Below are positions 1,979 to 29,389 of a stretch of 64,000 nucleotides of DNA, one piece after another. Made by a program: the position numbers and the translations under genes. The first letter of the stretch is position 1. Every line of letters begins with the position of its first letter. Source of the DNA: Obrimoposthia wandeli (Eukaryota); the NCBI GenBank assembly GCA_977020255.1, contig CDROCS010000228.1, positions 744,001 through 808,000 of the forward strand, given 5' to 3'. The notes beneath the pieces were generated by a model, which was not told the DNA's origin, did not search any database, and saw only the letters and a program-made list of their open reading frames with translations.

Positions 1979-1985
1979 ATTCGCA

Positions 1986-2126: not shown

Positions 2127-2157
2127 ACAATATTTAAATTGAACCTTTTTTATTAAA

Positions 2158-2487: not shown

Positions 2488-2515
2488 ACAATTATTTCTA
2501 AAATCAGCTAAAGAT

Positions 2516-2743
2516 ATGGGTGCTAGCCCTTCTTTACCTAAACTTAAATTTTCTTTCTATTCAAATTGTTGTAATGGAGAAGATATGGTTCAATCCAAAA
2601 GATCCAATTGGCTACACAGGAGTTTCAAAATTAGCAAAAAGAACAAAACAAAATTACAAGAAAACGCAGAAAACGCAGAAATGGCTGAGCGACCAGTTAG
2701 CCTACAGTCTGAACAAGCCGATGAGAAGAAGGTTTCCAACTAG
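2516..2743 (+). CDS. Possible overprinted small ORF with an N-myristoylation motif (MGASPS) and a CC pair
   Basis: An ATG-initiated 75-codon ORF overlaps the integrase start in another frame; it fits the MGxxxS consensus. Confidence 0.3.
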   Translation: MGASPSLPKLKFSFYSNCCNGEDMVQSKRSNWLHRSFKISKKNKTKLQENAENAEMAERPVSLQSEQADEKKVSN

Positions 2744-4665: not shown

Positions 4666-5020
4666 AGCTTATAGTCAAAGCCAACAAGGTGGAGAATTAC
4701 CATATTTTGTTGGTAAACAATACGGATCTGGCTGGCTTAGAACATTAGGTAGATTTGCCTTTCCTCTTTTAAAGAGACTCGGACGATTTATATCAAAATT
4801 AGGAAAGGATTACCTTTCATCTAATGACAATAAACTAATACCAACTTTTAAGAAGCATGCGCTTGATGAACTTGATAATGTTTTACCTGAAGTTGCTAAT
4901 TTGATTAGAAAACGTAAATAAAATAAAAGCCAAGGAGGTAGTGGATTTAAAAGTAAAAAGAAGCTAAAAAGTAATATAAACAAACGTAAGAATGTTGAAG
5001 GAACAATATTTGCAAAATGA
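4643..5020 (+). pseudogene. Adenovirus pVI-like maturation/membrane-lytic protein, one premature stop
   Basis: SQQGG|E is followed by amphipathic GSGWLRTLGRFAFPLLKRLG. The frame continues past TAA 4919-4921 as NKSQGGSGFKSKKKLKSNINKRKNVEGTIFAK*, with the TGA overlapping the MCP ATG (ATGA 5017-5020). Confidence 0.65.
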
Positions 5021-6244
5021 GTTGCGCCAAAACTGAATTATGTATTTTTGATAAACCGCTTCCACAAGTAGTTGTAGATAATGCTTCCTTTGAAGAAATA
5101 TTCCTAGTTAACTCAGTTTCAGGAACCACTTTAACCGATTTAGAATTTAATATTAATGGTTCCAATAGCGAGTATTTAGATTTGAATGATACTTTGCTTT
5201 ATGTTCAAATAAAAGTATTAAATCGGGATGGTACTAATTTAGATGAAAATGCCGATGTAACACCTATAAATTATCTATTTAATTCTTTATTTAATGATGC
5301 CATTGTTACTCTTAATAATGTCAAAATTGAAGGTGGAAATTCTTCCTATGCTCATAAAGCTTTGATTGAAAGTCTTTTGAATTATAGTACTGATACTCAA
5401 AATACTAATTTGGCAACCATTGGTTATGATAAAACTGATGCAACTCGCAAAGAATGGATTGCAGGTTCTAAAGCTTACGAAATGTGTGGGTCTTTGAGAT
5501 TGAATTTCTTTGAACAACCGAAATATTTAATTCCCGGTATTAATGTACATCTTCGTTTGAAACGTAATAAATGGAATTTTTCTTTGATAAGCACGGACAT
5601 TCTAAAACCTAGACTTGATATTTTGGATGCAAAATTGTATGTTCGAAGAGTTAAAACCGAGCAATCAGTTTTAATGGCACATAATATAGGAATGGAAAAA
5701 ACAATGCTTGTTATCCTATTAGAGAAACTAAACTTATATCTTATTCTTTAGGTACGGGTACACAAGCTTTTAATAAGGATCAAATTTTTGGTGATGTAAG
5801 ATTACCGAAATTCATTTTAATTTCTTTTCAAAAACTGCAAAGTTTCTAGGAAATTATACGACAGATGCAACTCAATTTGACAATCTTAATGTTGGTTCAG
5901 TAACACTTTCAAGAAATACTGATTATCGTGAAACATATAAAACAGATTTCGAAGGTAACGCTTATGCTTTGGCTTATACCCAATCTATTATTCGGAATTT
6001 GGGTCAACTAGATAAAAATATAAACAATGGTATTTCTTTCACTGACTTTAAAAAAAGCTGCCCGTTCTTCACATTTGTTTTGGCACCAGACTTTGATATA
6101 AACCAATGCCAACTACCAAAGGATGGAAATTTACGACTAGAAATTAAGTTCAATGCAGCTTCAACAAATCCTACTACGGTGCTTATTTACGGAGTATTTG
6201 ATTCGGAAATACAAATCAATAAAAACAGAACTGTCATATTATAG
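5017..6244 (+). pseudogene. Double jelly-roll major capsid protein (Polinton PY/hexon-like), two frameshifts
   Basis: CAKTELCIF...LEFNINGSNSEYLDLNDTLLYV at the start and GNLRLEIKF...VLIYGVFDSEIQINKNR at the end. One-base-short A runs at 5696-5701 and 5830-5834 explain the three reading-frame pieces. Confidence 0.9.
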
Positions 6245-6245
6245 A

Positions 6246-6644
6246 ATGGAGTAAGACATATTTTAAATTTTTATTTATTAATTTTTATTTAGTTCAAAAC
6301 AAGTAAAAGAATCAGCAGAGAAGGTCCTGGGTGATAAATTCAATGGAGTTTATCCTATTGATATGATTCCATTTTTTCAATCTGGAGGTTACATTATCAA
6401 TACTCATACTTCGAATTTACCAGGAGAACATTGGATAGCTATTTATGTTAGAGAGTGGACAATACATGTATTTGATCCACTTGCAATGTATTATCCACAC
6501 AAACTTGTTTCAACTATTCAAAAAGGACGAAGAAGAGTATTTTACAACAAGATACAATATCAGGATCCTGCGACGAGAAACTGTGGACATTTATGTATTT
6601 TATGGTTATCGTTGCAAAAACGATTAGTGTGTTATAAAAAATAA
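6246..6644 (+). CDS. Adenain-like (Ulp1 family) cysteine protease; 5-nt first exon (6246-6250), 42-nt intron, exon 6293-6644; 118 aa
   Basis: ATGGA|GTAAGA...TTTAG|T gives MDSKQVKE...FNGVYPID. Catalytic motifs GEHWIAI, FDPL and QYQ...NCGHLC are present. Confidence 0.85.
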
Positions 6645-6745
6645 AAATTTTAAATGTTTTATTTTGAATTATTTTTTAAATCTCTAAAAATTTAAGGGTA
6701 AAATAATAAAAGACATAAGACAAATTTTTTTAATACATTTATTAA
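6640..6745. terminator. Convergent polyadenylation region between the + structural cluster and the - polymerase gene
   Basis: AATAAA at 6640-6645 on + overlaps the protease stop; TTTATT (AATAAA on -) occurs near 6659 and 6738. Confidence 0.4.
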
Positions 6746-6892
6746 TCACAACATCACAATGAGATATGTCAGCAAAGATAAGGTCCATCCTAAAAATGTA
6801 TTGAAATAACAAATAAGTTAGAGTCTAGGTGCCATAGGGATCTAAAATTAAAAAAAAACTAAACTAAAAAAATCAAATAAAATGAAAACCGT

Positions 6893-9800
6893 TTAAATTC
6901 TGAAGTGTCCATAAGCCAGGCTAGCGTTCTTTTCTACCCAAAAGCGCTTGTCGTCATTACTACTCAACGCGATTTTGGTTGATTTATGGGAATACAGTTG
7001 ATGGGCTCTTGAAATAAATCTAGTTTGCTCAACGCTTTCAATACACCCAGTATCATAAACTTTCCGGTAGGCCTCATGTGTAAGATTGTTTCTTCTCACA
7101 CCCTTTGCTCTCATTGAACATGTATTATTAGATGCATGTAAACTGTAGCATTTAGACAATCATCATACGAAACCTGTCCCTCGCTTTCATCCTTAAATTT
7201 CCCGATAATGTCCTTTAAACTCATAGAGTGTAGAGGATGGTTAGCGGGATATTTATGGGTATCTAGTAAGTTGTCCCTAAACATTGCTGGTAATAATTGA
7301 TTATTTAAACTAACATTCCTACATTCTAAAAAGAAAGACAGTGTCCCCAGCTGCGATTTTAATCTCACAATTAAATTCTTGTCGGTATTTCTCCAATTCT
7401 ATGTATTGAAGCTCATACATTCTGAGTTTAGAAATGTCTAAAACCGTTTGACCTATATAACTCGGTCGATCGAGACAAATACTCTGTTTTCCTAATAACA
7501 CTGCTACCAAGTCATCTGCAATTGTAAAACTACGCTTGAAGTTGTACTTGCTAGTATATGTTATTAGTTTACGCTCATCATTGCAAAACTGTAGACAAAT
7601 ACGTTTCCGCAAATCCTCTACAGTTTTTCCAAAGAGACTATTACTTTTTAACTTGTAAAAATCTCGATCGAATTTGCTAGTGGCCAAATTATGTTTTCTT
7701 GAATTCTTCTCAATATAGTCTTTAAACACAAAGTTTTGACTGAAGCTTATAGCACGATGAATTCGAGTAACTTTCGCTCCCAACTTTAAGTAGAATTGAA
7801 GAAGCCGCCAATGCACAACATAATTCAACTTGTCTTCATGGGTTAACAATAATTTCTTAACCTTTGAATTAGGTGGGCATTGATGAACAGGCGCTACTGG
7901 AAGATCATCTAATTTATCATGCACATTGGGAGGGATTTTTATGTCCACCTCAACCAAATAGCCGACGTCGGATGAAACTGTATCAACAGTAGCCAAATCT
8001 GTCATCAACTTATTCAACTGATCCACATCATAAACCCACTTAAAGTTGGCATGAGGTAGAGGTTGAGTAAGCGCCCACCCATACAAATTATTAATATCGA
8101 TGTAGGGGAATCTCCGTGGATTGATTTTTGACAACATGATGTTTGTTGACAAAAGTCATTCCACCGCGTATACCATAATCATACATTTGATACATCGCGA
8201 GATCTTGCAGTAACTCGATATTAATTTTAAGAGTTTTTATTGCTGTTGCCCATGAAAGACCAGGTAAACTAAAGAAATGCATGGGATCTAGCCCATCTTC
8301 TGCTAAAGACTTTACACGAAAGGACTCAAAACATCAGCTAAAAGATAAATGTCTAACTTCATATAATAAAGCATATATTCGAGAAGATTTTGACAATTAT
8401 TCACCCAAAATGTACGGGCCTCATTATAGTCTTGAAGACTTACACCCTCAAATTCAGTTATGGGTGGGATTTCAGTTGTATTTTCTAAATCTGCGAAAGT
8501 TTTCGCAAATTTATACGGAAAAAATCCCCTTATCGTTAACCGAAGCTGGGAACACTGACTGTGTAATTGGCCATGCATTTAAAGATGCCGTTAAATTTTT
8601 TAAAGACCCGCTCAAAAACTGCAGAGAATCTATGAATCTTAAACTGCAGAATTCAGTATATGCAGTTAAAGATAAATATTTCTCTGAAGTTTGAGGTATA
8701 CATGAAATTTCCCAAGAGCTTAATGTACCCAACGCGTATTTAAGTATATGATGCAAATCATATCCTTTGGGGTTATGAAACACGATGGGAATGCGTGGTT
8801 TTTTAGGGAGACGACGGCCAAGGTTACAAAGGTTGCACGCCGCTCCCAAGTATCGCCCCGTAACATGATCGTGATCTCTGACTAACTTAGACTAGGTTCC
8901 ACACAAATAACATAATCTACAAGAATTAAAATTAACCCAGTCTATGCCTGTCATGATCATTGCTTGATGAGCATTGAGATCATACCACGGTTTGACAATT
9001 GTTGTTCCTAATTCCTCTAATTTTAACATAAAATCTAAAATACAATTTGGACCGGAAAATTTATGATACTGGGTAATATTGGGGCCTAAGAATAGTAGTC
9101 CTGCCGAAGCCGGTAGGTGAATACCCTCATACTGGTCGTGCAATGCTAAAATTGACTCAAAATCTGCATACACCCTGAATTCCACGGATATGCATTTTGC
9201 CCAATCCCTGACTTTTAAATTCTTATCCTTAGGCATGCTATATAGCGTATTGTCATCAGGATTCAGTGAACATAATGTCAGATGTTTGCTGTAAGAGAGC
9301 TCGGATCGGAACCCATGCAAACATCTATGACACCACTTACACCTTATCCTAACCGGTAAGGCTCCATTATCTAAATTTACAAGACGATCTAAACTGGGAA
9401 TTGCAGCATAATGGAATTTTTTATTATGTTCGAGCAAAATTAAGTTGACCTGAGTCCCCTCTTTTTTGCTCCTATAAATTACATCTACAAAAGGATTTTT
9501 AAAAATTTCTTCATCTGTTACATTAACTGGGATATCAGTATTATATTTGAATACATTAATACTCAAGTTATTAAGATGTTCAAATCTTGATATCGCAGTT
9601 AATTTAACCGGAAAATCTATTCCATGATACTGCAATTCATTTAAAAAGGGGTATATTTACTGACACGCTCTCTATGCTCAGTAATTACATCCCTTTTGAG
9701 GATGGCCAACACGCTATACAGAAAGCAAAGGTTATCACTGTTTTGTACGTTAACAATGGAACGTGAAAGTTGAAGAGATCTAGGTGAAGGAATGTATGAA

Positions 9801-11428
9801 CTCCCCGAAAGATATATCATGTCAGTGAACTTTGTTAGAACAAAGCTAACATCGTGAATTCTAACTAGAGTCCATCCACTACTTAGCTCGCTATAATTAG
9901 CAATTTTTTCATCAAGGTTTCTTCCAATTTCAGTTACAAAATTATCATAAAAAACAGTTGCTTTATGTGAAATTACCCAAGTTTTAGTTTCCTCATTGAC
10001 ATTTTTAAACTGCACTGTTGCGCAAAATTGAACCTTAGCCTGTCCTAATTTAGTCACTTCTGATTTTAAAAGATTTTCAATATTTGAATCTACACCTACG
10101 TTTAATAAAATTTCATTTCCTAATGGCACCTTAACTATAACATATTTATTATTTAGGTGATACTCTATAGTAGCACCGTTTTCTCTACGTTTTTTGGGCG
10201 GGACCTTATTAAGAAATTGGCCTCGCCTCTTTCTTCCGTTTGTCGCTGACAAACCTCCCCCTAATTGAACGGGAAGACAACTATTTATATTAATAGTTGA
10301 AACAATCGCAGCTGAGGTTGAAGGTGCTGCTATTGGTGATGCTGCCGATGTTGAGGCAATTGCAGCTGATGTGGAAGCTGCTGATATTGTTGATGCTGCC
10401 GATGTTGAGGCAACTGTAGCTGATGTTGAAGGGGCTACTGTAGCAGGTGCTGCCGATGTTGATGAGACAGTGGCAGTTGTAGAGGCTGCAATTGAAGCTG
10501 ACCTTGCCGATGAAGAAGCGGCTGATGTAGAGGTAAGTGCTGCTGAAATAAATATATTAAAAAATAAATATATTTTTTAAAATTATTACCTCTAAGGCGT
10601 GCTAACATCGATGTAGGCACTCGCAATGGTGGAGGCATATCTGTTGTAGCAGATGACGATTGTAGAAAGGTATTTCCTGAATAAATAATATAAATAAAAA
10701 ATATATATTAAAAATAAAATATATAATTACAATTTACAAAATAAAAAAAATACCTAATGAAGGCAATCCAAGTTGAGCTGGAACGAAGTCCTCTTCATTG
10801 ATGGAATCTATCCAGCTGTCGTCCGTTGACTCGATGAAATCGGATTCCTCAATGGTCTCCAACCATGAGTTGTCGCTCCACTGAGGCTGCTCCATCTCGA
10901 AATCTGACTGGGTGATATTTCGCATCCAGTCATTGTTTGAGAATTGGGTTGCTGGTGCCAACTCCTCAAAATCTTCCTCGGAGATGTCGTTCATCCACTC
11001 ATTGTTAGACATTTGAGTGGATGGGGCAGCAGCAGAATCAGGAGCCGGGAGAGAAGGACCAATGGCAGGACCATAAACTGGTAGACTGACTGCCACTGTA
11101 AATGGAGGTGGAGCTCGAGCGGCCTGCGAATCGCGCACCAATTGGACGATATCCCTCTTCTTGTTGTTGGCCGTGAAACACGATAGGTGAGCTCGATGTT
11201 CACAGAAGAATTCTCGAAACTCCTTCTTCTCCATTGTTCTGCAGAAGGGGCAGACGAAGAACAGAACACCTTGAGACTTGGTCCGGTAGTATGCAGACAT
11301 TGTCTCCATGCAGGACTCTCCTCCATGCGGAGCCGAAGCACCGCAATACGCAGGGAATAGGTTACACGTAATCTGAAATAATAAATATTAATAAGGAAAT
11401 AATAAAACTAAATTCTTACCATAGGCAT
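6893..11428 (-). pseudogene. Protein-primed family B DNA polymerase with spliced N-terminal leader; exons 11428-11420, 11372-10754, 10676-10590, 10542-6893; several frameshifts and one stop
   Basis: ExoI VYADFES, ExoII FHNPKGYD, ExoIII YMKLD; motif A YIDINNLYG, motif B KLKSNSLFGKT, damaged motif C GDT(D)S; KGV and DDKR near the C-terminus. It also has an EndoVII-like insert (CYLC...DHDHVTG...CNLCN) and a vOTU-like segment (NLCFLYS...FHYAAI). The three GT-AG introns keep frame into the core. Confidence 0.9.
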
Positions 11429-11523
11429 TATTTCAAATTGTCGGGGATTTAAATGAAGAAAGTGTTTGCTTATATACTAAAATTTATGCACACATGCTCT
11501 TTTCCTATTGGATTAAAAAATTG

Positions 11524-11713
11524 AATTTATTCCTCCACTGAGAAGGATTGTTTATCTGTTATTGGATGAAAAAATAATTTTATTCCTCCAATTAAAGAGA
11601 AGGATTGTTAATCTATTATAGGTTGAAAAAAAATTTATTCCTCCAATCAAAAGGCTTATTTGTAAATAAATGTAAAATTTTAATAATGAATTCCTCCAAT
11701 TAGAAGAATTGTT
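11524..11713. promoter_or_regulatory. Four degenerate ~55-bp repeats (AATTTATTCCTCCAAT...GAAGGATTGTT) upstream of the PolB TATA box
   Basis: TTCCTCCA(A/C)T copies near 11530, 11583, 11638 and 11691; TATATAAG on - at 11476-11469; first ATG at 11428. Confidence 0.55.
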
Positions 11714-12202
11714 TATCTACATGTCAAGTAATAATAAGAAAGACTTAAACATTTTTTATATGCGCAATGGTCACCATGATTACGATAAGGACAGCAAATA
11801 TTTTGTGGAATATTTAATAGATGATCACGTGAAATATTTAAAGTATTCAACCTCAATTTAGGAAAATATTTTTTTAAAGTCTTATATTTTTTGCCATCCA
11901 TGTCATCTAAAACATAAAAAATTCCATTTTCAATTTCAAAATTAGATTTAATAGTATCGAAAATACATATTTCACAAAAAGCCTTATGTCCTTCTTTCCA
12001 TTTTAATAAATGGAAATATTTAGTTAGATATAAGTTAGTAAATTTTTTCTTATAATCTAAACTTTTAAATGGGATATCTATATGAAATATGAAATGCAAA
12101 GGATGAAAAACGTCGCATACATCCATAATACATAATTCTTTTATAATATAATCCCCAATTTTTGTTAATGAAAGCCTCAAAATCTATGATATATTCCTGC
12201 AT
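11713..12202 (-). pseudogene. DEDD/DnaQ-like (Maelstrom-like) nuclease of the type found in insect Polintons; one frameshift
   Basis: True start MQEYIIDFEAF at 12202 (DxE motif), frameshift near 12160, then IIKELCI, TNLYLTKYFHLLKWKEG and the Cys/His tail CCPYRNHGDHCA. Confidence 0.6.
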
Positions 12203-12342
12203 AATTACCCAAATTTGTAGCAAATCCCGTTGTTTATAACGAAAAACTATTAATCAAAAATTTATTAAAATGACGAGGTAGTATTTAGACAATTTAATAT
12301 TTAGACAATTTATAACATAATCAATAAAGACAAAATAATAAT

Positions 12343-12672
12343 CTATAAAATTATTTTTTTTGTGGAAGGACCCTCCTCCGGTTTAATCTGGAGGATTCGC
12401 TTTCTTGCTGCTTGCCGAACATCCTCCGTCTCTTCTCTTCTTTTTTCCTCCACCTTCCTTTTTTCCATTTCGATTTTCTTGTTCCACTCCACAACCCGAC
12501 GTCGTTCTGCTAGCCGCCTGTCCTGAATTTCCACCCGACGATTCCACTCGGTCGCGACAGCAGTATATAAATTCTGGTTGAGGATCCTCTTTCGTAAATC
12601 TCCTTTCTTCTCATTTATTCTTATATTTGCCTCGATCTTCGTCACCAAACTTTGCATTTTAATAAATTCCAT
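12343..12672 (-). CDS. 109-aa charged coiled-coil protein of unknown function
   Basis: Intact ATG ORF rich in E/K/R; TATATATA and CCAATC motifs lie upstream (about 12700-12840). Confidence 0.6.
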   Translation of the reverse strand: MEFIKMQSLVTKIEANIRINEKKGDLRKRILNQNLYTAVATEWNRRVEIQDRRLAERRRVVEWNKKIEMEKRKVEEKRREETEDVRQAARKRILQIKPEEGPSTKKIIL

Positions 12673-12854
12673 TTTTTAATTATGAAGATGTTTGAACCTA
12701 TATATATAAATTAAAGATATTTTTAATCCAATCACAAGCAATTAAAATATATTTATCAAATGGAAGTTTAATAAATATATAACTAATCATTGCATTTATA
12801 TTTAATCCTAAAAAAATTAATTATTCATTAACAATCCAATCACATTCGAATAAG

Positions 12855-13040
12855 TTAACTTTATTTTAATAAACTTACGGAGGATATTTTAATATTATTA
12901 AATTCTAAAATTTATTGTTAACCTTGTTATTTTAATAAACTTAAGGAGGATATTTTAATATTAAATTCTAAAATTTATTTTTAACCTTGTTATTTTAATA
13001 AACTTAAGTAGTATATTTTAATATTACTAAATTCTAAAAT
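12855..13040. repeat. Three tandem ~63-bp AT-rich repeats
   Basis: TTATTTTAATAAACTTA...ATATTTTAATATT...AAATTCTAAAAT recurs near 12861, 12927 and 12990. Confidence 0.75.
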
Positions 13041-13069
13041 AAATAATAATAAAAAGACAACACAAGAAA

Positions 13070-15159
13070 CTAATGTTTATAAATTATATTTTTGAAAATC
13101 CTTACGAAGTCTTCATTGGTATCATCGGGGTCGTATTCCCTCCGACTTATTTTGATAGGAGAAAGCGGTACTGGTTCCTTCTTCTTTGGCCGGCCCGGTT
13201 TCTTTTTCGGCTTCACCGGTTGCTGTACAGCAATTGTCCTTCCCTCAGGTTTTGGCAATAGTTGCCGCAACTTTTTGGGAGGAGGTGCAGCCGATATTGA
13301 TGGCCCGGACATAGCAGCAGTAGCCTTCCTCTTCCGCGGAGCTTTCTTCTGTTTCTCCTCCTTCTCACGCTGAAGCTGGCGTGAGACGGCATCCTGTTGA
13401 TCACGCGAATCTGGAAGCATTGCGGGTGTATCCAGTTCCGCCAGGAATTCGTCCAAACCAGCGTCATCCCAGGCCCTCTTCAAGTTTTGGCTGGTTGTTG
13501 GACGAGGAGAAGCAGTATCCTGCAGGCGTTGTTGACTCGAGTGCGGACTTATCTCGATCGGCGAGACTGGGATCCTCTCATATAAGATAGGCCCGTCGTC
13601 CATTGGAGGAGGGAGAATCTCCTGCTGGCCAATCACCGCCTCAGAATAATGGCCAATTGAGGTTCAAATTTTTCTCGCGCGCCTCGTCTTCTTCACCTCT
13701 GCCCGCTTTGTCCTTTTCTTAGGGAAAGGAGTAACTTCTCCCCAAGTCTCCTCAATTATCCGGACAGGTTCCTGCAAATGAAAACAAAAATAAAATTTTA
13801 TTTTAATAAAAAAATATTTAAAATAACAAAAAATTACCTCAATAATCTTAGACGGAAGGTTTTCCTGCCGCTCAATCGTTACTTCACTCGAATTGAGCAG
13901 ACAGGATTTCGCCTTTCTAAGACGCCGTGTCTTCCGTACAGTAAGCTGCCTCGTTCGCTTATGCGGGAAAGGAGAACTTTTGGCCCACGTCTCCTCAGTT
14001 AATATTATTGGTTCCTGCAACAACAAAAACATTAATAAAATTTAAACATATAAATAATTTACCTCGATGACTGGCAGATTAGCCTTCTTCTTGGCCTTCT
14101 TCCGATGGACCGTATTGGTTTTGATTCGATGACGTCGAGCTTTCTTAACTGCCGCTTGCTTCCTATCGACAGGTAGTCTCCGAGATGCCTCCTCCCGAAT
14201 TTCCTCCACCAATTCAGCTTCCTAAGTGAATAATTAAATAAATTTACTAATTTTAATAATATACCTCAATTTTAGCCGGAGTCGGTAGGTATCTCTGATC
14301 ACTCCTGGGATCATCCTGGCTACATTGACTTGACAAGTATTGCGGTTCAATTAGCCTCTCAATCGTGGTCACTGACGGTGCCATATCCAATTGCAGTTTC
14401 TGAAAATAAAATTAAAAACATTTTAAATAAATGATTTCTAACCTCATTCGTCGCCTTTATTCTCCTAACAGGACGTATCGGAGATTGTGGCCTTCTGAAT
14501 GGATCAGGCACTGTATTGTTGGGTATCGGAGTCGGAGTTGTAGAGGGAGTGAGACCATCCCATTCGTCAGTGAACAGATCCCACTCATCGTCATCCATTT
14601 CTGCAACCATGGACTCGTTGGCTCCCGGGGCTCCGATACTTGGCTGTATCCACTCCTCCTCCCCATCCGACGGAACGTCATCAGTAAACAGCTCCTCGTC
14701 TGAGTCTGGTGCCAGTATTATCTCCAGTTGAGACAGCGGGATCAATTTCCTGGGGCATTTGATTGCCGCCTCGAAATTGTCAAAGAGATTGGATCTCCTT
14801 GCTGCTACTGCTGAAGTTGCCGGACGATTGGCTTCTGTGTTCAGCCTGGGAGTACAGTCTTCCCAATTCTCTATCGAATCCTGACTAGTCAGATCGATAT
14901 ATTGGGATCTCTGTACCCCACCTCGCACGCTCATTGGTTCTTCTCTTGGAGTTGAGCTGGCCAATGGCGGTTCTTCTAGCAACAGTTGGGCTCTTGCTGC
15001 TGCTTCTCCTTCGTCTCCTTCACTCACCACCGACGAGTCTTGACTAAGTAAGTCAATGTACTACGCCGGTGGTGGCGTTCGCTGCTGTACTGGAGAGAGA
15101 TCTCCATACAGCTGAACCTCCGTCTCTTCATCCAAATCGACGTTATTGAAATTTGACAT
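13070..15159 (-). pseudogene. Multi-exon acidic/basic disordered protein with SUMO-interaction-like motifs; exons 15159-14443, 14399-14265, 14221-14063, 14014-13838, 13771-13070; two in-frame stops
   Basis: Four phase-0 GT-AG introns (43, 43, 48 and 66 nt) join open frames. Stops are TAG near 15062 and TGA 13666-13664. Motifs include YIDLL, YIDLT, KPGRPKK and basic NLS-like clusters. Confidence 0.7.
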
Positions 15160-15242
15160 TCTTGCTTCTTGATTAATGATATTTGATTTATGAAAAAATA
15201 ATGAAAAGAGGTTTCCTTATATACAAAAATAATAGACTAATC

Positions 15243-15513
15243 CTCTTTTGTCGTCCAATGAGAGTGGGTTAATCAAATAATTTATTTGAAAATCAGTAGG
15301 CTTTTCTCAATTTTTTAACTATGTTTTAATGCTGGAATTTCATTGGATAAAACATATTTTATTCGAAAATATATCACTAAACTTTTGTCGTCCAATGAGG
15401 GCTGGGTATTCAAATAATTTATTTGAAAATCAGTAGGCTTTTCTCAATTTTTTAACTATGTTTGAATGCTGGAATGTCATTGGATAAAACATATTTTATT
15501 CGAAAATATATCT
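15243..15513. repeat. Direct duplication of a ~139-bp CCAAT-containing promoter module
   Basis: CTTTTGTCGTCCAATGAG...AAATAATTTATTTGAAAATCAGTAGGC...TTATTCGAAAATATATC occurs twice in tandem upstream of the 15159 ATG. Confidence 0.8.
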
Positions 15514-15689
15514 ATTTTCTTAAGATTTTCTTAAGATTTTCTTGTATAAGTTTAACGTCCAATGAAAACGTATTATTCAAAGAATTTATGTTATTTTCTT
15601 AAATTTTGTTAATATTTGGATTTAAAATAGTAATATTTTTTTTTGACTGTACATGTTTTGATGGTATAAAAAATTCATGAACTCATTTC

Positions 15690-16072
15690 AGGTCAAGTTA
15701 AGGTCATTACCTTATGAGGTCATCATCGTGAGGTCAAGGTCATTTAAGGTCATCATGAGGTCAAGGTTACAAAGTTGTCTAGGTCATCATGAGGTCAAGA
15801 TCACTTAAGGTCATGATGACTAATTTGATGACTCATCAAATAAAAATGCAAATTATTTCGAATTTATGTAGTTGATTATTTAAAAATTTTTTGTGACCCT
15901 ATATATGTATCTTTCTTATAAATTCTTGTAAAGAATTTTTTTTTTATGACCTTGTATATATGTATGGATATAAATTTTTATAAGGAAAATTTTTTCGCGC
16001 CCACCGGGCGCGAAAAAAAATTTCTCGCGTATAATTTTTCTGGTCTGCAGGGCGCGAAATGTTTTTTCGCGA
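15690..16072. promoter_or_regulatory. Subterminal cluster of AGGTCA half-sites, an AP-1 palindrome and E2F-type sites
   Basis: Ten exact AGGTCA at 15690-15813; TTTGATGACTCATCAAA at 15824-15840; TTTCGCGC/GCGCGAAA at 15993, 16008 and 16052, and TTTCGCGA at 16065. Confidence 0.55.
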
Positions 16073-16261
16073 GCCTGTATTTATTACTCGTTGATCCACC
16101 GCGGGCCTGTAGGGCACCCTTTGGCCAATTTTTTGGCCTCTCAGGACCTTAATCAAAATTTTGGGAGCATTATGAGATTTTTAAATTTACATGGTGTTAA
16201 ATGGAGTTAATTTTTTTTTCTTTTTTTGAGTGTTTTGGGATGGTTGGGGGTTAGAAAATTT

Positions 16262-16330
16262 TTCTACACACCTACACGAAATTTCACTCTACACACATGC
16301 ACGAAATTTCACTCCACACACCTACACGAT
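16262..16330. repeat. Three short subterminal repeats ACACACCTACACGAAATTTCACT
   Basis: Directly visible just inside the right terminus of element A. Confidence 0.65.
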
Positions 16331-16386
16331 TTTAAAGGACAAGGGGGGAGGAGGGGTGTGGATTAGAAAGGACACATCCACCTACT

Positions 16387-19300
16387 GGTCATGACCCTCT
16401 ATGGTCGGCCAACATAGCCAAGGGGTTGTGGCCGACCATAGATGAAAATATCGGATTCAGTTTTGACTTGAAGGTTTGAAGGTTTGAAGGTATGGTCATG
16501 ACCATATATGGTTGACCAACACACCTAAAGGGTTGTGGTCGTCCATATATGAAAGGGTCGGGGTCAGTTTTGACTTGAAGGTTTTAAGGTATAATTAAGG
16601 TCTATTATAGTTGATCAACACATCTAAAGGGTCATGGTCGGTCATAGTTGAAGGGGTCGGGCTAAAGACAAAATTAACTTTCAAATATCAAGGTTTTAGT
16701 ACATAGTTGGAATCATCTTTTGAAGACGAATTCATCCATAAAGGTATGGTCGTCCATAGATGAAGGGTTAAAAAAAGTTGTAAGTACATGGTTGTGTTTG
16801 TCAAAATATTGTGCGTTTAATCATGTAAAAACTTTATAGTCGTCCACAAGTTAAGGGTCAGATTTGGAACAAACTTGATAATTTTATTACATGGTTGTAT
16901 TTGTCTATTAAAATTGAGGTCAACCATATCCTTATGATCATGCATAAGTTGAGGGATCCTAGTGTAAATAAAAAAAATACTTGTAATTTAAAAAAATATA
17001 TTTATATATATATATTTTTTAATTAAAATTTTTGTAAAATAATTTTTTTTTACACTTTCAGTCATACTCTATAACTCTAATTCCTTTACACATTCGATAT
17101 TACTAACGTTTTTTTTACTTACTCTTGTTATCACTTAGTATCATTTTAAATCATACTATCTAACTCATTTATTTACATTGTGATTTACATTTACATTCAT
17201 TCATACCTTTCTAATGACTTACTTGTCTATAGTTTTACTTACATTTAGTATTATTTTAATTCATACCATCAAACATAGTGTTGTTTCCTATTAATCTTGC
17301 TGTCACTTAGTCATTCTAACTTTTAACATAACTCAGTATCATGCTTCTTACAGTTGTTTACTTGTTATTAATCTAACTGTAACTTAACATAACTTTTATG
17401 CATACGAAACCTCTATTTGAATTTACTTAGAGTCTAAATTACATTCACATTCAATCATACTCTCAACACTCTTTTTTTTAATTACTCACACTGTCACTGT
17501 TTCACACTTGCAGTTTTACATTCACTTGCTAAGACTCTTACTTGTATTTGCATTCACTTGTAATCATACATGCATTCATTTACATTCATTCTAACTCTCA
17601 TTTATTCAAACTATCATTAAAAATCATTAATATTGTATTAATTTCCATTCATACTTGTACTTGACATTCGTACTTGCAATCGTATTCTTTCTTACTTGTA
17701 CTTGTAGCTACATTCATTCATACTTGCATTCATTTACATTCATTCTTACTCTCATTTATTCAAACTATCATTCAAATTCATTAATGTTTTTACTAATTTT
17801 CATTCATACCGTCAAACTAAGTGTTGTTTTCTATTAATCTCGCTGTAACTTAGTCATTCTAACTTTTAACATAATTCAGTATCCCTGATTCTTATAGTTG
17901 TTTACTTGTTATTAATCAATCTGTCATTTAATATAACTTTTATTCATACGAAAACTCTATTTTAATAAACTTGTAGTCGTAATTATACTCGCATTCAATC
18001 ATACTCTCGACACTCTTTATTTTTAATTACATTCACTTGATAAGATTCTTACTTGTATTTGCATTCACTTGCATTCATACTTGCATTCATTTACATTCAT
18101 TCTAACTCTCATTTATTCAAACTATAACTCAAATTCATTGATATTTTTACTAATATTCATTCATTATTGTACTTGAATACATTGTTCTTGCATTCGTATT
18201 CATTCATAATTGTATTCGTAATCTTTCTTACTTGTACTTGCATTCATTCTTAATTGTAATTGCTTTTATTTAAATTTACACTTGTATTAATTCACAATCG
18301 ATTATTAATTTTATTTTTTTTCACAAGAGATTTTTAATATTTTAGAAAGTTGAATAATAAATGGAAATACTAAGTTTATAATCGAATATGTACATAATTT
18401 GATTTATTTACATATAAAACAATATAATTAAAGATTTGATATTCTAATTTATAGACGAAGCTTTCAGTAAGCTTTGAATAACATGTGTTTGCAAATTAAT
18501 TTTCGATATTCGATACAAATAAAAATAAAATAAATTTGAAGTTTTTTTTTAATGTGTTAAAGATATTTTCGACTATTTAAAGTGTAAATCGAATAATGTT
18601 AATACTCAAATTATATAAATAAACATTTCTTTAACCAAGTTTTTTAAAAATAAAGAATTCAAATTTATCAGTTTAAAAAAACTAATTAAGGAATGTTATT
18701 AAATGAGATAAAGAATTTTTAATTATTTATGTGTGTGAAGTGATCATTATAACATGTGAAAATTATGTTTGAGAATAAACACACACACGAAAATTGACAA
18801 TTATTAATATAATATAAACAGATTATTAATGTTATTCATTGGTTGCTAGTATTAATTTGATAATTACAAATTAATAATAGAAAATGATTTATCTTTATAT
18901 ATATACATATATTTTTTTTAATTTGCTTTATAATTATTATATTTTTAATATGTTTATCATTATTTTAAGGCATAAATTACAATCATAAAATAGTGCAATT
19001 TTAAAATTAATAAATATTTAAGATATTTAACTTAGAGTTATAATAAATAGGTTTGTGTTTGTATATACATTTGTTTAAATACATCAAAAGTGACAATATA
19101 AAAATCGCGGTAATTTAAAAATATGTTAGAATTAATCATTTTACAGACTTTTATCAAAATTTAAATTATTAAAATCTAAAGGGAGAGTACAAATTGTTTA
19201 AAGTACAAATTGTAAAAAAAGAATTACAAGTAAGTTAATATCTTGTATTATTCTATTATTTTTAAATAACATTTGTATTTAGTAGTTATTACTTGAACTT

Positions 19301-20600
19301 AAAGTTGTTTTTTTAATAAAAATTTTTATATATTAAAAAAAATCAAATATTACTAAAATGTATCAAAAAAAATTTAAAAAACCCGTTAAATTATAATTTG
19401 TTTAACTTTAACAAAAACTAAAAAAATAATTTGGCACAAATTTAAATTTAAATATATATATATATATTTTTTTGAAATTACAATTATTTTCATCAGAACT
19501 TTTTAATTTTATTAACCAAAATTTTTTCACATAGCATAGTGTGTATTAATACGTAATACATTCTTTAACTGATCAGAGTGAACTTTGACCTAAATGTTCA
19601 CATAGCGTAATTGATTGATTACTATAGATGTGTTTGGTACTTTAATATTTTATTTAAAAATCCTTTAAATTAAAATTTGTTTAACTTTAATAAAAACTAA
19701 AAAATTAATTTGGTAAAAATTTAAATTAAAAAAAAAATTATTTTTGAAATTACAGGTATTTTTAAATTTTTTATTTGAATATCTTTTCTTTTATTTTAAA
19801 CAAAATTGTTTAATTACATTACTAAAATTAATAAAAATTTGCGTAAATTGAAATATTTTAAAAAAATTGTTAGTAAAGTATTTTGAGTTTATTAAACATT
19901 TAATTTTGCTTAATATTGGTTTTAAATAATAGTACTTTAAAATTTTATTTAAAAAAAATCTTCAAATTAAAATTTGTTTAACTTTAACAAAAACTAAAAA
20001 ATTAATTTGACAAAAATTGAATTTTTTTTAATTTACCCCAGGATCCCTCCACTTATGCATGATCATAAGGGTATGGTTGAACTCAATTTTGCTAGACAAA
20101 TACAACCATGTAATAAAATTATCAAGTTTGTTCCAAATCTGACCCCTAACTTGTGGACGACCTTAAAATTTTTACATGATTAAACAAACAATATTTTGAC
20201 AAACACAACCATGTACTTACAACTTTTTTTAACCCTTCATCTATGGACGACCATACCTTTATAGATGAATTCGCCTTCTAAAGATGATTCCAACCATGTA
20301 CTAAAACCTTGATATTTTAAACTTGATTTTGTCTTTAACTAGACCCTTTGATTTATGGATGACCATACCTTTATGGATGAATTCGCCATCTAAAGATGAT
20401 TCAAACCATGTACTTTCATCTGTGGACGACCACAACCCCTTGGCTATGTTGGCCGACCATAGAGGGTCACGACCATACTGTGTGGCAAGACACCATATGA
20501 TGAGTCAACATATACCCTTATGGTATGACACCCTTTAACATTGTGTGTGCACACCGGGGGTACCCCCGTAAGTGGTCTAGACTCCATCAAAGTACCTACT
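16387..20600. mobile_element. Non-autonomous Polinton-family element B, interrupted in its left TIR by element A
   Basis: 16387-16960 is an inverted copy of about 20040-20474. The right end reads ...GACTCCATCAAAGTACCTACT(20600). The interior is non-coding and shares blocks with element C. Confidence 0.8.
17050..18280. repeat. Degenerate CATTCA/TACTTG-rich tandem repeat block inside element B
   Basis: Recurrent CATTCATACTTGCATTCATTTACATTCATTCTAACTCTC and TTAATCTTGCTGTAACTTAGTC units, homologous to those in the arms of element C. Confidence 0.75.
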
Positions 20601-21897: not shown

Positions 21898-23519
21898 CTG
21901 TTCACACTGCTTAATTCTTACACGTAATGCACAAATATTTCGGCACAATTCTTAATCGAATTTGGGAAATTCTCAATGATCAGAATTTTTATGTGGTCTT
22001 TGTTTTAAATTATGTATATAGACTAGCTCCTTACAATTTCCAACACTTAAACGTTCAATTGTAACAAATCTGGGTTACATTTGTGTTGAGAATTTCTAAA
22101 TAACTCTCACAGTAGGTAGAAGGATGGAGTCTAAGCCACTTGACCCCCCCCTTGTGCGCACACAATGTTAAAGGATTTTTCAACATAAGGGTGTCACACC
22201 ATAACGGTGTCTTGCCACACCATAAGGGTATATGTTGCCTCACCATATAAATGTCACACCATAAGGGTATATGTTGACTCACCATAAGGGTGTCTTGCCA
22301 CACCATAAGGGTCTGGCTCAGAAAGTTTATGATAGGGGGAGGGGGGAAGGGTCAAGTGGCTTAGTCTCCACCCTTCTTTGGTATACCACTAAAGGGTTGT
22401 GGTCGTCCATAATTCAAAGGGTCAAGGTCAGTTTTGACTTGAAGGTTTGAAAGTATGGTCATGACCGTCTATGGTCGTTCAAAAATCAAAGGGTCAGACT
22501 CAGTTTTGACTTGAAACTTTGAAGGTATAATTAAGGTCAACTATGGTTGGCCGTCACATCTAAAGGGTTGTGGTCGTCCATAAATCAAAGGGTCAGACTC
22601 AGTTTTGACTTGAAACTTTGAAGGTATTATTAAGGTCAACTATGGTTGGCCATCACATCTAAAGGGTTGTGGTCGTCCATAGGTCAAAGGGTTGGGCTAA
22701 AAAAAAAAAAATTAAAATATCAAGGTTTTAGTACATGGTTGTAATCATCTTTAGAAGGTGAATTCAGTCATAAAGTATGACTGTCCATAAATCAAAGGGT
22801 CGAGCTATAGACCAAATCAAGTTTTAAATGTCAAGGTTTGAATACATGGTTGTAATCATCTTTAGAAGACGAATTCATCCATATATGTATGGTCGTCTAT
22901 AGATGAAGGGTTAAAGAAAAGTTGGAATTTCATAGTTTCAAGTACATGGTTGTATTCTTCAACATATTACGAGTTTATTCATGTACAAATTTTATGGTCG
23001 TTCACAAGTTAAGAGTCAGATTTGGCATAAATTAAGAAATTATATAGTATTCAATCAATTATTCTATGTGAAAGTTCACTCTTATCAGTTAAGGAATGTA
23101 TTACGTAATCATACACACACTATTCTATGTGAAAATTTAGTCTAAAGTTCACTCTTATCAGTTAAGGAATGTGGTTTTTAACACACACACTATTCTATGT
23201 GAAAGTTTAGATCAAAATTTTTTCCTAGGCTTATACATCTATAGAATTATGATAAAATTTCTTTAAATAACTTAAATTACATATTAAAATAAAAAATAAA
23301 ATAAGAAAGAAGTCAGAGAATAATACAAAATTAAACACATTTATTATGCAATTTCATAATATCATCTTCAAACTTAAGTGAATAACATTTACAAAGTAAG
23401 AAAGTCCATTCTTTATACATTCTTTTCGTTTCAACGACTAAGTTACAGAGGGGAAAAAAAACAACAACACTAAGTTTAACGCTATGAATGAAAATTAGTA
23501 AAATATTAATTTATTTGAA

Positions 23520-24660
23520 TATTTGAATGATAGTTTGAATAAATGAGAGTTAGATTAAATGTAAATGAATGCAAGTATGAAAAAAAAACACTAAGTTTAA
23601 CGCTATGAATGAAAATTAGTAAAATATTAATTTATTTGAATATTTGAATGAGAGTTAGATTGAATGTAAATGAATACAAGTATGAATGCAAGTATGATGT
23701 AATTTACAAGTAAGAGTCTTAGCAAGTGAATGTAATTTAAAAAATAAGAGTGTCGATCGTTTGATTGAATACAAGTGTAATTTAGACTATATGTAAATTA
23801 AAATAGAGTTTTCGTTGAATAAATTATAGTTAGATTGAATGTAAATGAATGCAAGTATGAATGCAAGTGAATGCTAGTATGAATGTCAATACAAGTAAGA
23901 GTCTTAGCAAGTGAATGTAATTTAAAAATAAGAGTGTCGATAGTTTGATTGAATACAAGTGTAATTTAGACTATAAGTAAATTAAAATAGAGTTTTCGTT
24001 GAATAAATTATAGTTAGATTGAATGTAAATGAATGCAAGTATGAATGCAAGTGAATGCTAGTATGAATGTCAATACAAGTAAGAGTCTTAGCAAGTGAAT
24101 GTAATTTAAAAATAAGAGTGTCGATAGTTTGATTGAATACAAGTGTAATTTAGACTATAAGTAAATTAAAATAGAGTTTTCGTATGAATAAAGTTATGTT
24201 AAGTTACAGTTAGATTAATAACAAGTAATCAACTATAAGAAGCAGTGATATTGAAGTATGTTAAAAGTTAGAACGACTAAGTTACAGCAAGATTAATAGA
24301 AAACAACACTAAGTTTGAAGGTATGAATGAAAATTAGTAAAATATTAATGTATTTGAATGTAATTGAATGATAGTTTGAATAAATTACAGTTAGATTGAA
24401 TGTAAATGAATGCAAGTATGATTGAATGCATCTACAAGTACAAGTAAGAAAGAATACGACTGCAAGTACGAATGTCAATTATGAATGAAAATTAGTAAAT
24501 ATATTAATGAATTTGAATGGTAGTTTAAATATACGAGAGTTAGAATGAATGTAAGTGAATGCAAGTATGAATGTAAGTGAATGCAAGTATGAATGTAAGT
24601 GAATGCAAGTATGAATGCAAATACAAGTAAGAATCTTTGCAAGTGAATCTAAAAATGCAA
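23520..24660. repeat. ~185-bp tandem units plus GAATG/CAAGT short repeats, left arm of C
   Basis: GAGTCTTAGCAAG at 23714, 23899 and 24083. Confidence 0.8.
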
Positions 24661-25519
24661 GTGAGTACTAGCTAATTATTAAATTAATACTATCAATCAA
24701 TGAAGATGATGTAACAACCTGATGAAGTTAAAATAATTAGATGTGAACTTTCATATTTTCACATAGTTTACCCCATGTTAAAGTTAACCTTTCATACACA
24801 CTCATGCAATTAAATAATTAAAATGTCTTATCTCGTTTAATAACATTCCTTAATTGAAATATTTTAAAATAATTAGATAAATTTAAATTCTTTATTTTTA
24901 AATAACTTGATTATAAAATTATATTCGTAAATATAATTGAAATTATCATTATTCGTTTCTCTTTTTAACTATTCGAAAATATATTTATATACAAATTTAG
25001 TAAATTAACTCAACAAAGAATTTTTTTTTAATTACTTGATATTTTTGCCATTCTCTTATCAATATAATATGAATATTCAATTATTTCTTAAAAAATTCTT
25101 TTTATATGTTATATAATATTTCTTTACCACATTATTGTGGTATTTTATCAAGTGATTTTAACTTTAAACTATTAAAAAATATTTTAATTATAAAGTTACT
25201 AGCTGTACCCCACCGACTGCCTATAATATAAATTTCAAATATAAAGTACTATTAAATGTATTCTTTCAAATAGTAAATGTTCTTTAAAGAATTTAAATTT
25301 ATCTAATTATTTTAAAATATTTCAATTAAGGAATGTTATTAAACGAGATAAGACATTTTAATTATTTAATTGCATGAGTGTGTATGAAAGGTTAACTTTA
25401 ACATGGGGTAAACTATGTGAAATATGAAAGTTCACATCTTAATTATTATAACTTCATCAGGTTGTTACATCATCTTCATTGATTGATAGTATTAATTTAA
25501 TAATTAGCTAGTACTCACT

Positions 25520-26900
25520 TGCATTTTTAGATTCACTTGCAAAGATTCTTACTTGTATTTGCATTCATACTTGCATTCACTTACATTCATACTTGCATTC
25601 ACTTACATTCATACTTGCATTCACTTACATTCATTCTAACTCTCGTATATTTAAACTAGCATTCAAATTCATTAATATATTTACTAATTTTCATTCATAA
25701 TTGACATTCGTACTTGCAGTCGTATTCTTTCTTACTTGTACTTGTAGATACATTCAATCATACTTGTATTCATTTACATTCAATCTAACTGTAATTTATT
25801 CAAACTATCATTCAATTACATTCAAATACATTAATATTTTACTAATTTTCATTCATACCTTCAAACTTAGTGTTGTTTTCGATTAATCTTGCTGTAACTT
25901 AGTCGTTCTAACTTTTAACATACTTCAATATCACTGCTTCTTATAGTTGATTACTTGTTATTAATCTAACTGTAACTTAACATAACTTTATTCATACGAA
26001 AACTCTATTTTAATTTACTTATAGTCTAAATTACACTTGTATTCAATCAAACTATCGACACTCTTATTTTTAAATTACATTCACTTGCTAAGACTCTTAC
26101 TTGTATTGACATTCATACTAGCATTCACTTGCATTCATACTTGCATTCATTTACATTCAATCTAACTATAATTTATTCAACGAAAACTCTATTTTAATTT
26201 ACTTATAGTCTAATTACACTCGTATTCAATCAAAATATCGACCCTCTTATTTTTTCCCAAATTACATTCACTTGCTAAGACTCTTACTTGTATTGACATT
26301 CATACTAGCATTCACTTGCATTCATACTTGCATTCATTTGCATTCAATCTAACTATAATTTATTCAATGAAAACTCTATTTTAATTTACTTATAGTCTAA
26401 ATTACACTTGTATTCAATCAAACTATCGACACTCTTATTTTTAAATTACATTCACTTGCTAAGACTCTTACTTGTATTGAAATTCATACTAGCATTCACT
26501 TGCATTCATACTTGCATTCATTTGCATTCAATCTAACTATAATTTATTCAACGAAAACTCTATTTTAATTTACTTATAGTCTAAATTACACTTGTATTCA
26601 ATCAAACTATCGACACTCTTATTTTTTAAATTACATTCACTTGCTAAGACTCTTACTTGTAAATTACATCATACTTGCATTCATACTTGTATTCATTTAC
26701 ATTCAATCTAACTCTCATTTATTAAAACTATCATTCAAATATTCAAATAAATTAATATTTTACTAATTTTCATTCATAGCGTTAAACTTAGTGTTTTTTT
26801 TCATACTTGCATTCATTTACATTTAATCTAACTCTCATTTATTCAAACTATCATTCAAATATTCAAATAAATTAATATTTTACTAATTTTCATTCATAGC
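25520..26900. repeat. Inverted counterpart of the ~185-bp array, right arm of C (one extra unit)
   Basis: GCTAAGACTC near 26087, 26274, 26458 and 26643. Confidence 0.8.
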
Positions 26901-29389
26901 GTTAAACTTAGTGTTGTTGTTTTTTTCCCCTCTGTAACTTAGTTGTTGAAACGAAAAGAATGTATAAAGAATGGACTTTCTTACTTTGTAAATGTTATTC
27001 ACTTAAGTTTGAAGATGATATTATGAAATTACATAATAAATGTGTTTAATTTTGTATTATTCTCTGACTTCTTTCTTATTTTATTTTTTATTTTAATATG
27101 TAATTTAAGTTATTTAAAGAAATTTTATCATAATTCTATAGATGTATAAGCCTAGGAAAAAATTTTGATCTAAACTTTCACATAGAATAGTGTGTGTGTT
27201 AAAAACCACATTCCTTAACTGATAAGAGTGAACTTTAGACTAAATTTTCACATAGAATAGTGTGTGTATGATTACGTAATACATTCCTTAACTGATAAGA
27301 GTGAACTTTCACATAGAATAATTGATTGAATACTATATAATTTCTTAATTTATGCCAAATCTGACTCTTAACTTGTGAACGACCATAAAATTTGTACATG
27401 AATAAACTCGTAATATGTTGAAGAATACAACCATGTACTTGAAACTATGAAATTCCAACTTTTCTTTAACCCTTCATCTATGGTCGACCATACATATATG
27501 GATGAATTCGTCTTCTAAAGATGATTACAACCATGTATTCAAACCTTGACATTTAAAACTTGATTTGGTCTATAGCTCGACCCTTTGATTTATGGACAGT
27601 CATACTTTATGACTGAATTCACCTTCTAAAGATGATTACAACCATGTACTAAAACCTTGACATTTAAAACTTGATTTGGTCTATAGCTCGACCCTTTGAT
27701 TTATGGACAGTCATACTTTATGACTGAATTCACCTTCTAAAGATGATTACAACCATGTACTAAAACCTTGATATTTTAATTTTTTTTTTTTAGCCCAACC
27801 CTTTGACCTATGGACGACCACAACCCTTTAGATGTGATGGCCAACCATAGTTGACCTTAATAATACTTTCAAAGTTTCAAGTCAAAACTGAGTCTGACCC
27901 TTTGATTTATGGACGACCACAACCCTTTAGATGTGACGGCCAACCATAGTTGACCTTAATTATACCTTCAAAGTTTCAAGTCAAAACTGAGTCTGACCCT
28001 TTGATTTTTGGACGACCATGACCCTTTAGATATGTTGGTTGACCATAGACGGTCATGACCATACCTTCAAACCTTCAAGTCAAAACTGACCTTGACCCTT
28101 TGAATTATGGACGACCACAACCCTTTAGTGGTATACCAAAGAAGGGTGGAGACTAAGCCACTTGACCCTTCCCCCCTCACCCTATCATAAACTTTCTGAG
28201 CCAGACCCTTATGGTGTGGCAAGACACCCTTATGGTGAGTCAACATATACCCTTATGGTGTGACATTTCTATGGTGAGGCAACATATACCCTTATGGTGT
28301 GGCAAGACACCGTTATGGTGTGACACCCTTATGTTGAAAAATCCTTTAACATTGTGTGCGCACAAGGGGGGGGTCAAGTGGCTTAGACTCCATCATTCTA
28401 CCTACTTCTCACCAGTTACAGTAACTGGGAAAAATATCCAATTATGAGGATGGGACAAATGCCAACCCAAACAATAATTCCGGGACTGTTCACAGACTTA
28501 TCGAAACTTTATGACGGTTTTCTTCACAACAAAACACACAATTGTGGCGATTGACTTTTAAAAACATCCTCAAACAATTCATGAAACTGTTCACGGAATT
28601 CTAAAATGCAGTAAAAATCATCTTCATTCAGGTATTGAACCAATCTAGGTCACCAAACTTTTAAGTCTTATTTATTTAAGATCGTTGAACAGTATTTCGA
28701 GTTCTGCAGAAAGACAACGTAAAGAATATTGTTTGCTGTGTCAGCACTTCTTTAGCAATCTGCCGATTTTCCTATGTGTTCACTACTGAACGAGAGAACT
28801 TAGGGAGCAGTTATTTATACCATTTGTTGTTAAAATATTTACACGAATATTAATTCTAAATGTTATGGAATGGAAACAAAAAGAAAACATGGAGATTATA
28901 TTGATATTTTGCTGAAAAAGTCACAGCAATGTACAGAAGACTTAAGAGACGCATATTAAATATTACAAAGGAAAGATTCACCAATCAAGGATTATATTAA
29001 TTTAAGCCAAGTCAATATGGTTAACTAAAAGGAAGTTGATATAAGTGAAAGTAAATTTCATTTCGGAAGAAACCATTATCAAATTTGTACATGAGAACAT
29101 TCCACCAAAAAATGCATTGCGTTTAGGAAATTGTCCGGCACGACCGAAGGAAAATGGTAAAAAACAAAAGGTTGTGTAATAAATGCTTATAGAAAGGATA
29201 TTGGACAAAAAATATTAAGTGCAGACAATTATGTCATATAGATGGATGTAGTCAAAGCATCATTGGATTTAACACATTAGAATGCAAACAAAAGATCATT
29301 GAAGTATAAGGAAACAAACTAATCCGTAAAACCAGATGCATTTGCAGGTTCAACAGAAAATAATGGTGACTTTTCGAACAATTCCAGTG

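Follow-up and report, generated by a model that had tools for sequence, protein, structure and literature searches.

Polintons or Mavericks (polintoviruses; adintovirus-like elements) have AGT-type termini, terminal inverted repeats (TIRs), and target-site duplications (TSDs) of 6 bp, and their replication in animal cells is not known to have been observed directly. Adenovirus and phi29 are protein-primed strand-displacement replicons, what is established for them would make a panhandle intermediate the natural route for copying between inverted arms, and palindromic phi29 mini-replicons exist. Non-autonomous Polinton families are reportedly mentioned in the 2006 Polinton paper of Kapitonov and Jurka and in Repbase. 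Here, we analyzed a 64,000-nucleotide stretch of the Obrimoposthia wandeli genome (assembly GCA_977020255.1, contig CDROCS010000228.1, here C228, positions 744,001 to 808,000; hereafter the window), which carries an almost entirely palindromic element at 22111..28406. This element is a real, recently mobile, non-autonomous Polinton derivative and a truncated member of a family with an unusual build, made from one doubled end. We name this gene-less, high-copy Polinton/Maverick family E, and the coding family of the same genome to which its arms are related family B. Our preferred explanation, which we consider probable, is that E is a polymerase-end-doubled non-autonomous Polinton family that is mobilized in trans and whose arms are re-copied, and that the copy in the window is centrally deleted.

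In the available portions of the published accounts, intact vertebrate Mavericks are 12.7–24.6 kb long, with TIRs of 46–1447 bp, 6-bp TSDs, and a median of 8 elements per genome (PMC8097293). The anole family has a 584-bp TIR and, in the part of the account available, no non-autonomous copies (PMC3014272). TIRs of 744 bp together with TIR-linked rearrangements have also been described (10.1101/2024.01.15.575659), and a general review was consulted for comparison (PMC6431247). Family E shares the termini, the TIRs, and the TSD length with these elements, and it derives its ends and a polymerase piece from a family that encodes integrase, ATPase, and polymerase. However, E is gene-less, inverted arms of 2.8–5 kb take up most of its length, a single end is the source of both arms, and its markers give thousands of matches versus the vertebrate median of 8. 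The accessible text on butterflies describes gene-bearing TIRs of ~2 kb and mobile polB-less Polintons (10.1101/2025.02.07.637071). Such gene-depleted Polintons resemble E in being mobile without a polymerase of their own and in being bounded by helper TIRs. However, those described in the accessible text retain a left end as well as a right one, usually along with some genes, whereas E has a doubled single end, a fixed core, and homogenized multi-kb arms.

Foldback elements and miniature inverted-repeat transposable elements (MITEs) of cut-and-paste transposons are generally known to have long modular inverted arms, internal tandem repeats, variable length, and no transposase, whereas E is tied to Polintons by its termini, TSD length, and captured polymerase piece. 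The snap-back genomes (SBGs) of adeno-associated virus (AAV) and phi29 mini-replicons carry one genome end twice in inverted orientation and depend on a helper for replication, as E presumably does. In contrast to AAV SBGs, E exists in an integrated, heritable form that has been amplified into a family, and interference, packaging, and dsRNA would be hypothetical properties of it. End joining of broken genomes has also been proposed as an origin of AAV SBGs in the available parts of the reports (PMC8235507, PMC9463555). Non-autonomous pararetroviruses, as far as the accessible account goes, are endogenous and swap cis sequences with their helper (PMC5491270), similar to the E/B hybrids and mixed terminus types found here, whereas they form an unrelated, reverse-transcribing circular group and are not palindromic. 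A gene-less Polinton family built of one doubled end was not described in the literature searched, the scope of which excluded most subscription papers, Repbase reports, and preprint supplements.

Architecture of the element and its doubled end

Alignment reproduced the architecture claimed by a first-pass annotation of the window, including the termini, the TCTCAC TSD, the arm lengths, the 390-bp spacer, and the near-total palindrome. AGTAG at 22111 and CTACT at 28406 are the element termini, and TCTCAC lies immediately outside each; the chance that two random window positions hold equal 6-mers is P = 7e-4. The features are:

22105..22110, + strand: left TSD, TCTCAC
22111..24894, + strand: left arm, 2784 bp
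22111..23297, + strand: outer stretch of the left arm, with homology to the family-B TIR of about 1.1–1.2 kb (present at both B ends), with tandem units of 72, 99, 111, and 73 bp
23305..23362, - strand: polymerase-side-only tail of family B; a deletion of ~223 bp relative to B precedes the next part
23362..23424, - strand: 63-bp piece of the family-B gene for a protein-primed DNA polymerase, from its C-terminal part
23425..24652, + strand: AT-rich tandem repeats (121-bp x2, 184-bp x2.9, 22-bp x3.3)
24895..25284, + strand: "spacer", a continuation of the left arm, unpaired since 390 bp more was cut from the right arm
25280..25291, no strand: central deletion junction, TTCTTT then AAAGAA, 1 bp microhomology
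25285..28406, - strand: right arm, 3122 bp
26956..27075, + strand: second copy of the polymerase piece and polymerase-side tail
28407..28412, + strand: right TSD, TCTCAC

The left arm and the reverse complement of the right arm align globally with 2761 matches and 19 mismatches (99.3%), and the gaps comprise four indels of 16–187 bp and five of 1 bp. The surplus of the right arm consists of one 184-type repeat unit (187 bp), one 111-bp unit, and segments of 27 and 16 bp. Several tandem arrays lie inside the arms, and the spacer has a GC content of 17.7%. The AT-rich repeats at 23425..24652 are absent from family B and 70–85% like the interior of an older element at 16393–20600. The statement that the element has no coding capacity holds for its present frames, the longest of which spans 80 codons from stop to stop, but not for its origin, which is partly coding. 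While the integrase, protein-primed polymerase, ATPase, protease, and capsid genes of an autonomous Polinton are absent, a 63-bp polymerase gene piece in each arm is the sole coding trace. An Rfam search of the element gave zero matches.

A palindrome of this kind could also come from the assembly or from a fold-back chimeric read. Among the longest pieces of four public runs of one sample, no listed contig bridges 25285, and no empty site was seen: similarity of the left flank to an old repeat stops at ~22079 (37 matches), with no match crossing the insertion site, and the flanks have no match in the fetched loci. However, the arms differ by 19 substitutions and nine indels, the unlike flanks carry a direct 6-bp duplication, many loci of the same build have their own TSDs, and ~6000–6900 contigs per run lie on the element center. 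In these contigs, loose ends at 25285 match both parental continuations, and the joint between 24900 and 25285 is ordinary arm continuity. Because of the diverged arms, the distinct flanks, and the many parallel loci, a chimeric read is unlikely, and we regard an artefact of either kind as extremely improbable.

Family B, the coding partner, spans 11.6–12.7 kb in seven copies with both ends seen, of which five have a perfect TSD, and contains genes for an integrase (rve), an ATPase, and a DNA polymerase. The polymerase was assigned by its similarity to the Pfam DNA_pol_B_2 frame of another coding family, family A (58% identity over 259 aa); Pfam found no DNA_pol_B_2 in the family-B polymerase frames, only Endonuclease_7. 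The TIRs of B end at about 0.7–1.1 kb in all seven copies measured, corresponding to approximately the first 1.19 kb of the E arm, and 7 of 20 termini sampled inward belong to B. Termini and TIR common to a coding family of the same genome, together with 6-bp TSDs, support the claim that the element is Polinton-derived and non-autonomous. Pattern matching over the 1.35-Gb assembly, in which every reversed-pattern control gave 0, returned 2394 matches for the protease-side marker of B, relative to which a plain DNA search under-counts the family (~28 copies). On contig C88 (474,342–481,654), five protease-side markers stand in tandem with ~1.8-kb spacing.

Each E arm was shown to be the polymerase-side end of the ~12-kb family B fused to AT-rich tandem repeats. 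In B copies, the arm tail (23305–23362 type) lies at the polymerase end, whereas 0 of 9 protease-side pieces contain it, and the 63-bp polymerase piece has 98% nucleotide identity to family B (18–20 of 21 aa). Tail and polymerase piece are present in both arms of nine elements, although one arm of the C1196 element has them only partly. The proposal of two copies of the same end is thus supported by polymerase-side-only sequence in both arms, and one genome end doubled in inverted orientation, a copy-back or snap-back feature, characterizes family E. Among the first 100 matches listed, the polymerase-deletion marker forms a convergent pair within 15 kb in 18 elements and a divergent pair once, and no protease–protease pairs occur among the first 100 protease-side matches listed. 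Because both arms represent the polymerase-side end, the founder of E would have arisen by one family-B-like end being copied over the other, an event that we infer from the observed structure. One arm with the older terminal variant (L104; C1548, ~1,023,200–1,027,112) carries the family-B polymerase piece at 98%, which suggests a possible end exchange between subfamilies.

These data also bear on whether the element is a plain internal-deletion derivative (a large MITE) of a coding Polinton with its own TIRs of 3–5 kb. The ~2-kb TIRs in the accessible account of butterfly Polintons (10.1101/2025.02.07.637071) and the finding of two E/B hybrids are in line with such an origin. However, the B TIRs end at the lengths given above in 7/7 copies, polymerase-side-only sequence occurs twice in the arms, and the inner arm sequence has no match in eight family-B pieces. 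In addition, 10 family-A copies have no such arm at the left terminus (their right ends were mostly not reached). This origin is therefore already largely refuted for families A and B, and we consider it highly improbable overall. The element does not combine one end from each parent side, as both its arms hold polymerase-side-only sequence, and family A was rejected as a parent, since only the first terminus bases and none of the arm are common.

Family E and the central deletion of the window copy

Family E is represented by 4451 exact matches to the polymerase-deletion junction, an arm-specific marker. The terminus marker, common to E and B, gave 4390 matches and the core marker 1113 (both with ≤1 mismatch), and the inner-arm marker of the closest subfamily gave 177 exact matches. 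Element-level counts are samples of fetched loci, and the fetched elements were chosen as best matches to the window copy and are not random. The long form of E is 9–10.5 kb and consists of an arm, a unique core of ~280 bp, and an inverted arm, as in C1196 (10.2 kb), C664 (10.5 kb), C5713 (10.1 kb), C199 (9.0 kb), and C1203 (9.1 kb). Inward of the arms, these long members have 134/136-bp arrays and then the non-symmetric core, which is 94–100% identical across eight elements and is missing in the window copy and several other members.

Both ends were seen in 15 elements, gene-less or hybrid (1.7–12.0 kb, counting the window copy), of which nine have a perfect 6-bp TSD, four match at 5/6 positions, and two have none that is clean. 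The nine perfect TSDs and the absence of genes agree with the earlier suggestion that an integrase making 6-bp TSDs acted in trans. A 10.1-kb member is inserted in a family-A gene, and the uninterrupted copy of this gene in the window carries the hexamer once, representing the pre-insertion site. Insertions of E are dispersed, and their flanks differ between loci. Family members often lie inside or beside other Polintons (C537, C5713, C1749, C14, C1715, and C1395), reflecting either a target preference or mere Polinton density. Two pairs of near-identical elements with flanks lie on the same contig, L117/L118 (C3994) ~108 kb apart and L119/L122 (C5040) ~56 kb apart, and are segmental duplications or unpurged haplotypes.

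A single, asymmetric deletion at the center of the window copy took out the core together with the inner arrays. A search with the center of this copy returned 1829 candidates at first look; 40 of these were scored, and arm and spacer are contiguous in all 19 other loci returned, which run beyond the spacer into family sequence missing from the window copy. The spacer is therefore the unpaired remainder of the left arm and not the separate sequence it had been taken for. The predicted copies with the same spacer and different TSDs were not found, as the central junction has a single match in the assembly. Likewise, all three shortened-element junctions counted genome-wide (the window copy and two others) are single-copy, which argues that shortened forms do not spread. 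The shortened junctions inspected mostly have a few base pairs of microhomology by eye (1 bp in the window copy), and their positions differ widely between loci. Because the long palindromic members share the ~280-bp core, the window copy is a central-deletion derivative of the 9–10.5-kb palindromic family, in place of the one-off copy-back product of a coding genome that the first-pass annotation had envisaged. A symmetric junction hairpin was given no weight as a cause, since its folding does not surpass that of shuffles (z 0.92) and, by eye, no comparable symmetric junction is evident among the others inspected. On balance, we lean toward a deletion in the chromosome after insertion, and a deletion in the last replication round before insertion is a somewhat less favored possibility.

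Each shortened copy, including that in the window, might instead be a fresh copy-back or snap-back product, for which the left arm was copied to 25285, folded back, re-copied from 24894, and integrated once. Of the 19 differences between the arms, 14 involve alleles unseen in 126 other loci (one of the two alleles in 13 cases, both in 1), and all four large arm indels have an edge found nowhere else. The two arms could thus have begun identical, and the pattern fits a fresh fold-back as well as a later mutation of homogenized arms. Three private variants present in both arms of the window copy over ~900 columns, the widely varying junction positions, and the precedent of AAV SBGs in the available text (PMC8235507) also favor this origin. 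However, an ordinary deletion from a palindromic parent yields the identical structure, the single-copy junctions lack the re-amplification expected of replicating defective genomes, and fold-back would have been primed on just 1 bp of microhomology at a junction that folds like shuffles. We therefore regard a fresh snap-back as unlikely, though worth retaining. The arrangement of the arms supports a snap-back-like origin for family E, whereas such an origin is only putative for the window copy itself.

Arm-to-arm copying and the proposed mechanism

To compare arms, we counted private-shared variants, that is, substitutions that the two arms of a single element share and that every other sampled arm lacks, in four repeat-poor segments, excluding duplicate fetches and one copy from each of the two segmental pairs. 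In 25 arm-pair segments (8008 columns), such variants numbered 28, whereas cross-element pairs predict ~0.9; for the portion inward of the helper TIR, 14 were found and ~0.55 predicted. As these numbers far exceed expectation, arm-to-arm copying recurs in separate lineages. The variants are denser near the termini (14 in 2317 columns) than further in (14 in 5691). In principle, assembly polishing could contribute to this signal, although the large number of single-arm variants speaks against such an effect. A comparison of arm divergence with element length was left unused because it is confounded by repeat cross-matches.

Arms have also been switched at chromosomal sites. In L054 (C1576:120527-126642), the element encloses 748 bp of its own flank as an inverted copy and the direct TSD is kept at the outer second terminus, and thus the switch took place at the chromosomal site. 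Similarly, L047 (C537:381802-389938) has an inverted duplication including flanking DNA, which places arm switching within the chromosome as well. These two loci, whose arms are 94.5–98% alike and hence old, favor a purely chromosomal account, whereby E moves by integrase only, without a free hairpin replicon, and the doubled end, homogenization, and deletions result from gene conversion and template switching. The unique junctions with mostly few-base microhomology by eye are consistent with it. However, thousands of copies are poorly explained by a non-replicative move, as is the doubling of the polymerase end alone (no protease–protease pairs among the first 100 listed), and the private-shared variants are densest near the termini, as expected from correction during terminus-primed replication. 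We find this account rather doubtful.

In the preferred explanation, the gene-less E, with helper termini at both ends, would be inserted in trans by a Polinton integrase, giving 6-bp TSDs. Family B is proposed as the helper because the termini are common to B and E. E would most likely be copied by the protein-primed polymerase of the helper, and the displaced strand would fold into a multi-kb panhandle, inside which one arm could template the other and so homogenize the arms. This panhandle step is most likely by analogy with replication of the adenovirus and phi29 type. In the window copy, the single asymmetric central deletion removed the core and inner arrays.

Several points weigh against this explanation. 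Family E is known here from assembly sequence, and no free replicating form, helper dependence, or expression has been observed. Two convergent polymerase–protease marker pairs lie within 15 kb, and the pair counts cover only the first 100 listed matches per marker. Ordinary left-plus-right forms also exist as E/B hybrids, L112/L133 (C2964:137776-149786; 12.0 kb, perfect TSD) and L077/L078 (C4263), which join gene-less arm and core sequence to coding family-B parts. The sampled loci lean toward the subfamily of the window copy, the one with 177 inner-marker matches. Private variants in a single arm number 77, so homogenization is not continuous, and the explanation does not account for how the inner repeats and core arose. 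Moreover, a review reports that wild-type yeast stably maintains inverted repeats of 6 kb separated by a 280-bp spacer, which weakens a deletion in the chromosome, and that palindrome instability drops as the spacer lengthens (PMC7999016).

Going further, we tentatively raise the possibility that E is a heritable satellite or defective-interfering polintovirus genome. Such a genome would have a free hairpin or panhandle form, two polymerase-side origins, arrays that pad it to near helper length for packaging, ends renewed from the current helper, and a copy number as high as that of the helper, and would represent a recurring unnamed class across animal genomes. In its structure, family E appears to resemble a snap-back satellite, and the paired-marker element lengths are mostly 7–12 kb versus 11.6–12.7 kb for the helper.

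Neighboring elements and implications

Two further Polinton-related elements precede the palindrome in the window:

1..16386, no strand: broken coding Polinton, family A (contig C228 742,802–760,386, TSD GGTCAT)
16393..20600, no strand: bulk of a related but older element without genes (contig 742,607–764,600, TSD TATCAT)

The older gene-less element (16393–20600 plus contig C228 742,607–742,801) has a different terminal variant, a short left arm, and a long right side, and is 70–85% like the arms of the 22111..28406 element, with blocks in another order. The family-A Polinton is nested ~195 bp inside it and belongs to a separate family from that which gave rise to the arms. Copies of family A are very abundant, with 150/150 scored integrase matches being 96–100% identical. 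At 591–1028, a frame of the broken Polinton encodes a TATA-binding-protein domain (Pfam TBP, above the cut-off with E 3.7e-11), and this region is found at 97–98% in other family-A copies. A degenerate match (66–85%) to 14855–15324 of the family-A element lies at 32506–32986 and is probably an old Polinton fragment, and the long low-complexity frames at 53551–54300 and 60915–61901, without a Pfam match, are probably host exons.

The doubled end, together with arm copying beyond the helper TIR, would be the genomic footprint of a panhandle or hairpin intermediate, and would narrow the cis sequence required for mobilization to the polymerase-side end. Such elements would be missed by gene-based Polinton surveys. 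The multi-kb palindromes, present in thousands, also probably promote local rearrangement, as at C1576 and C537. With thousands of natural insertions, it can be asked whether defective-interfering genomes of an integrating DNA virus become heritable parasites.

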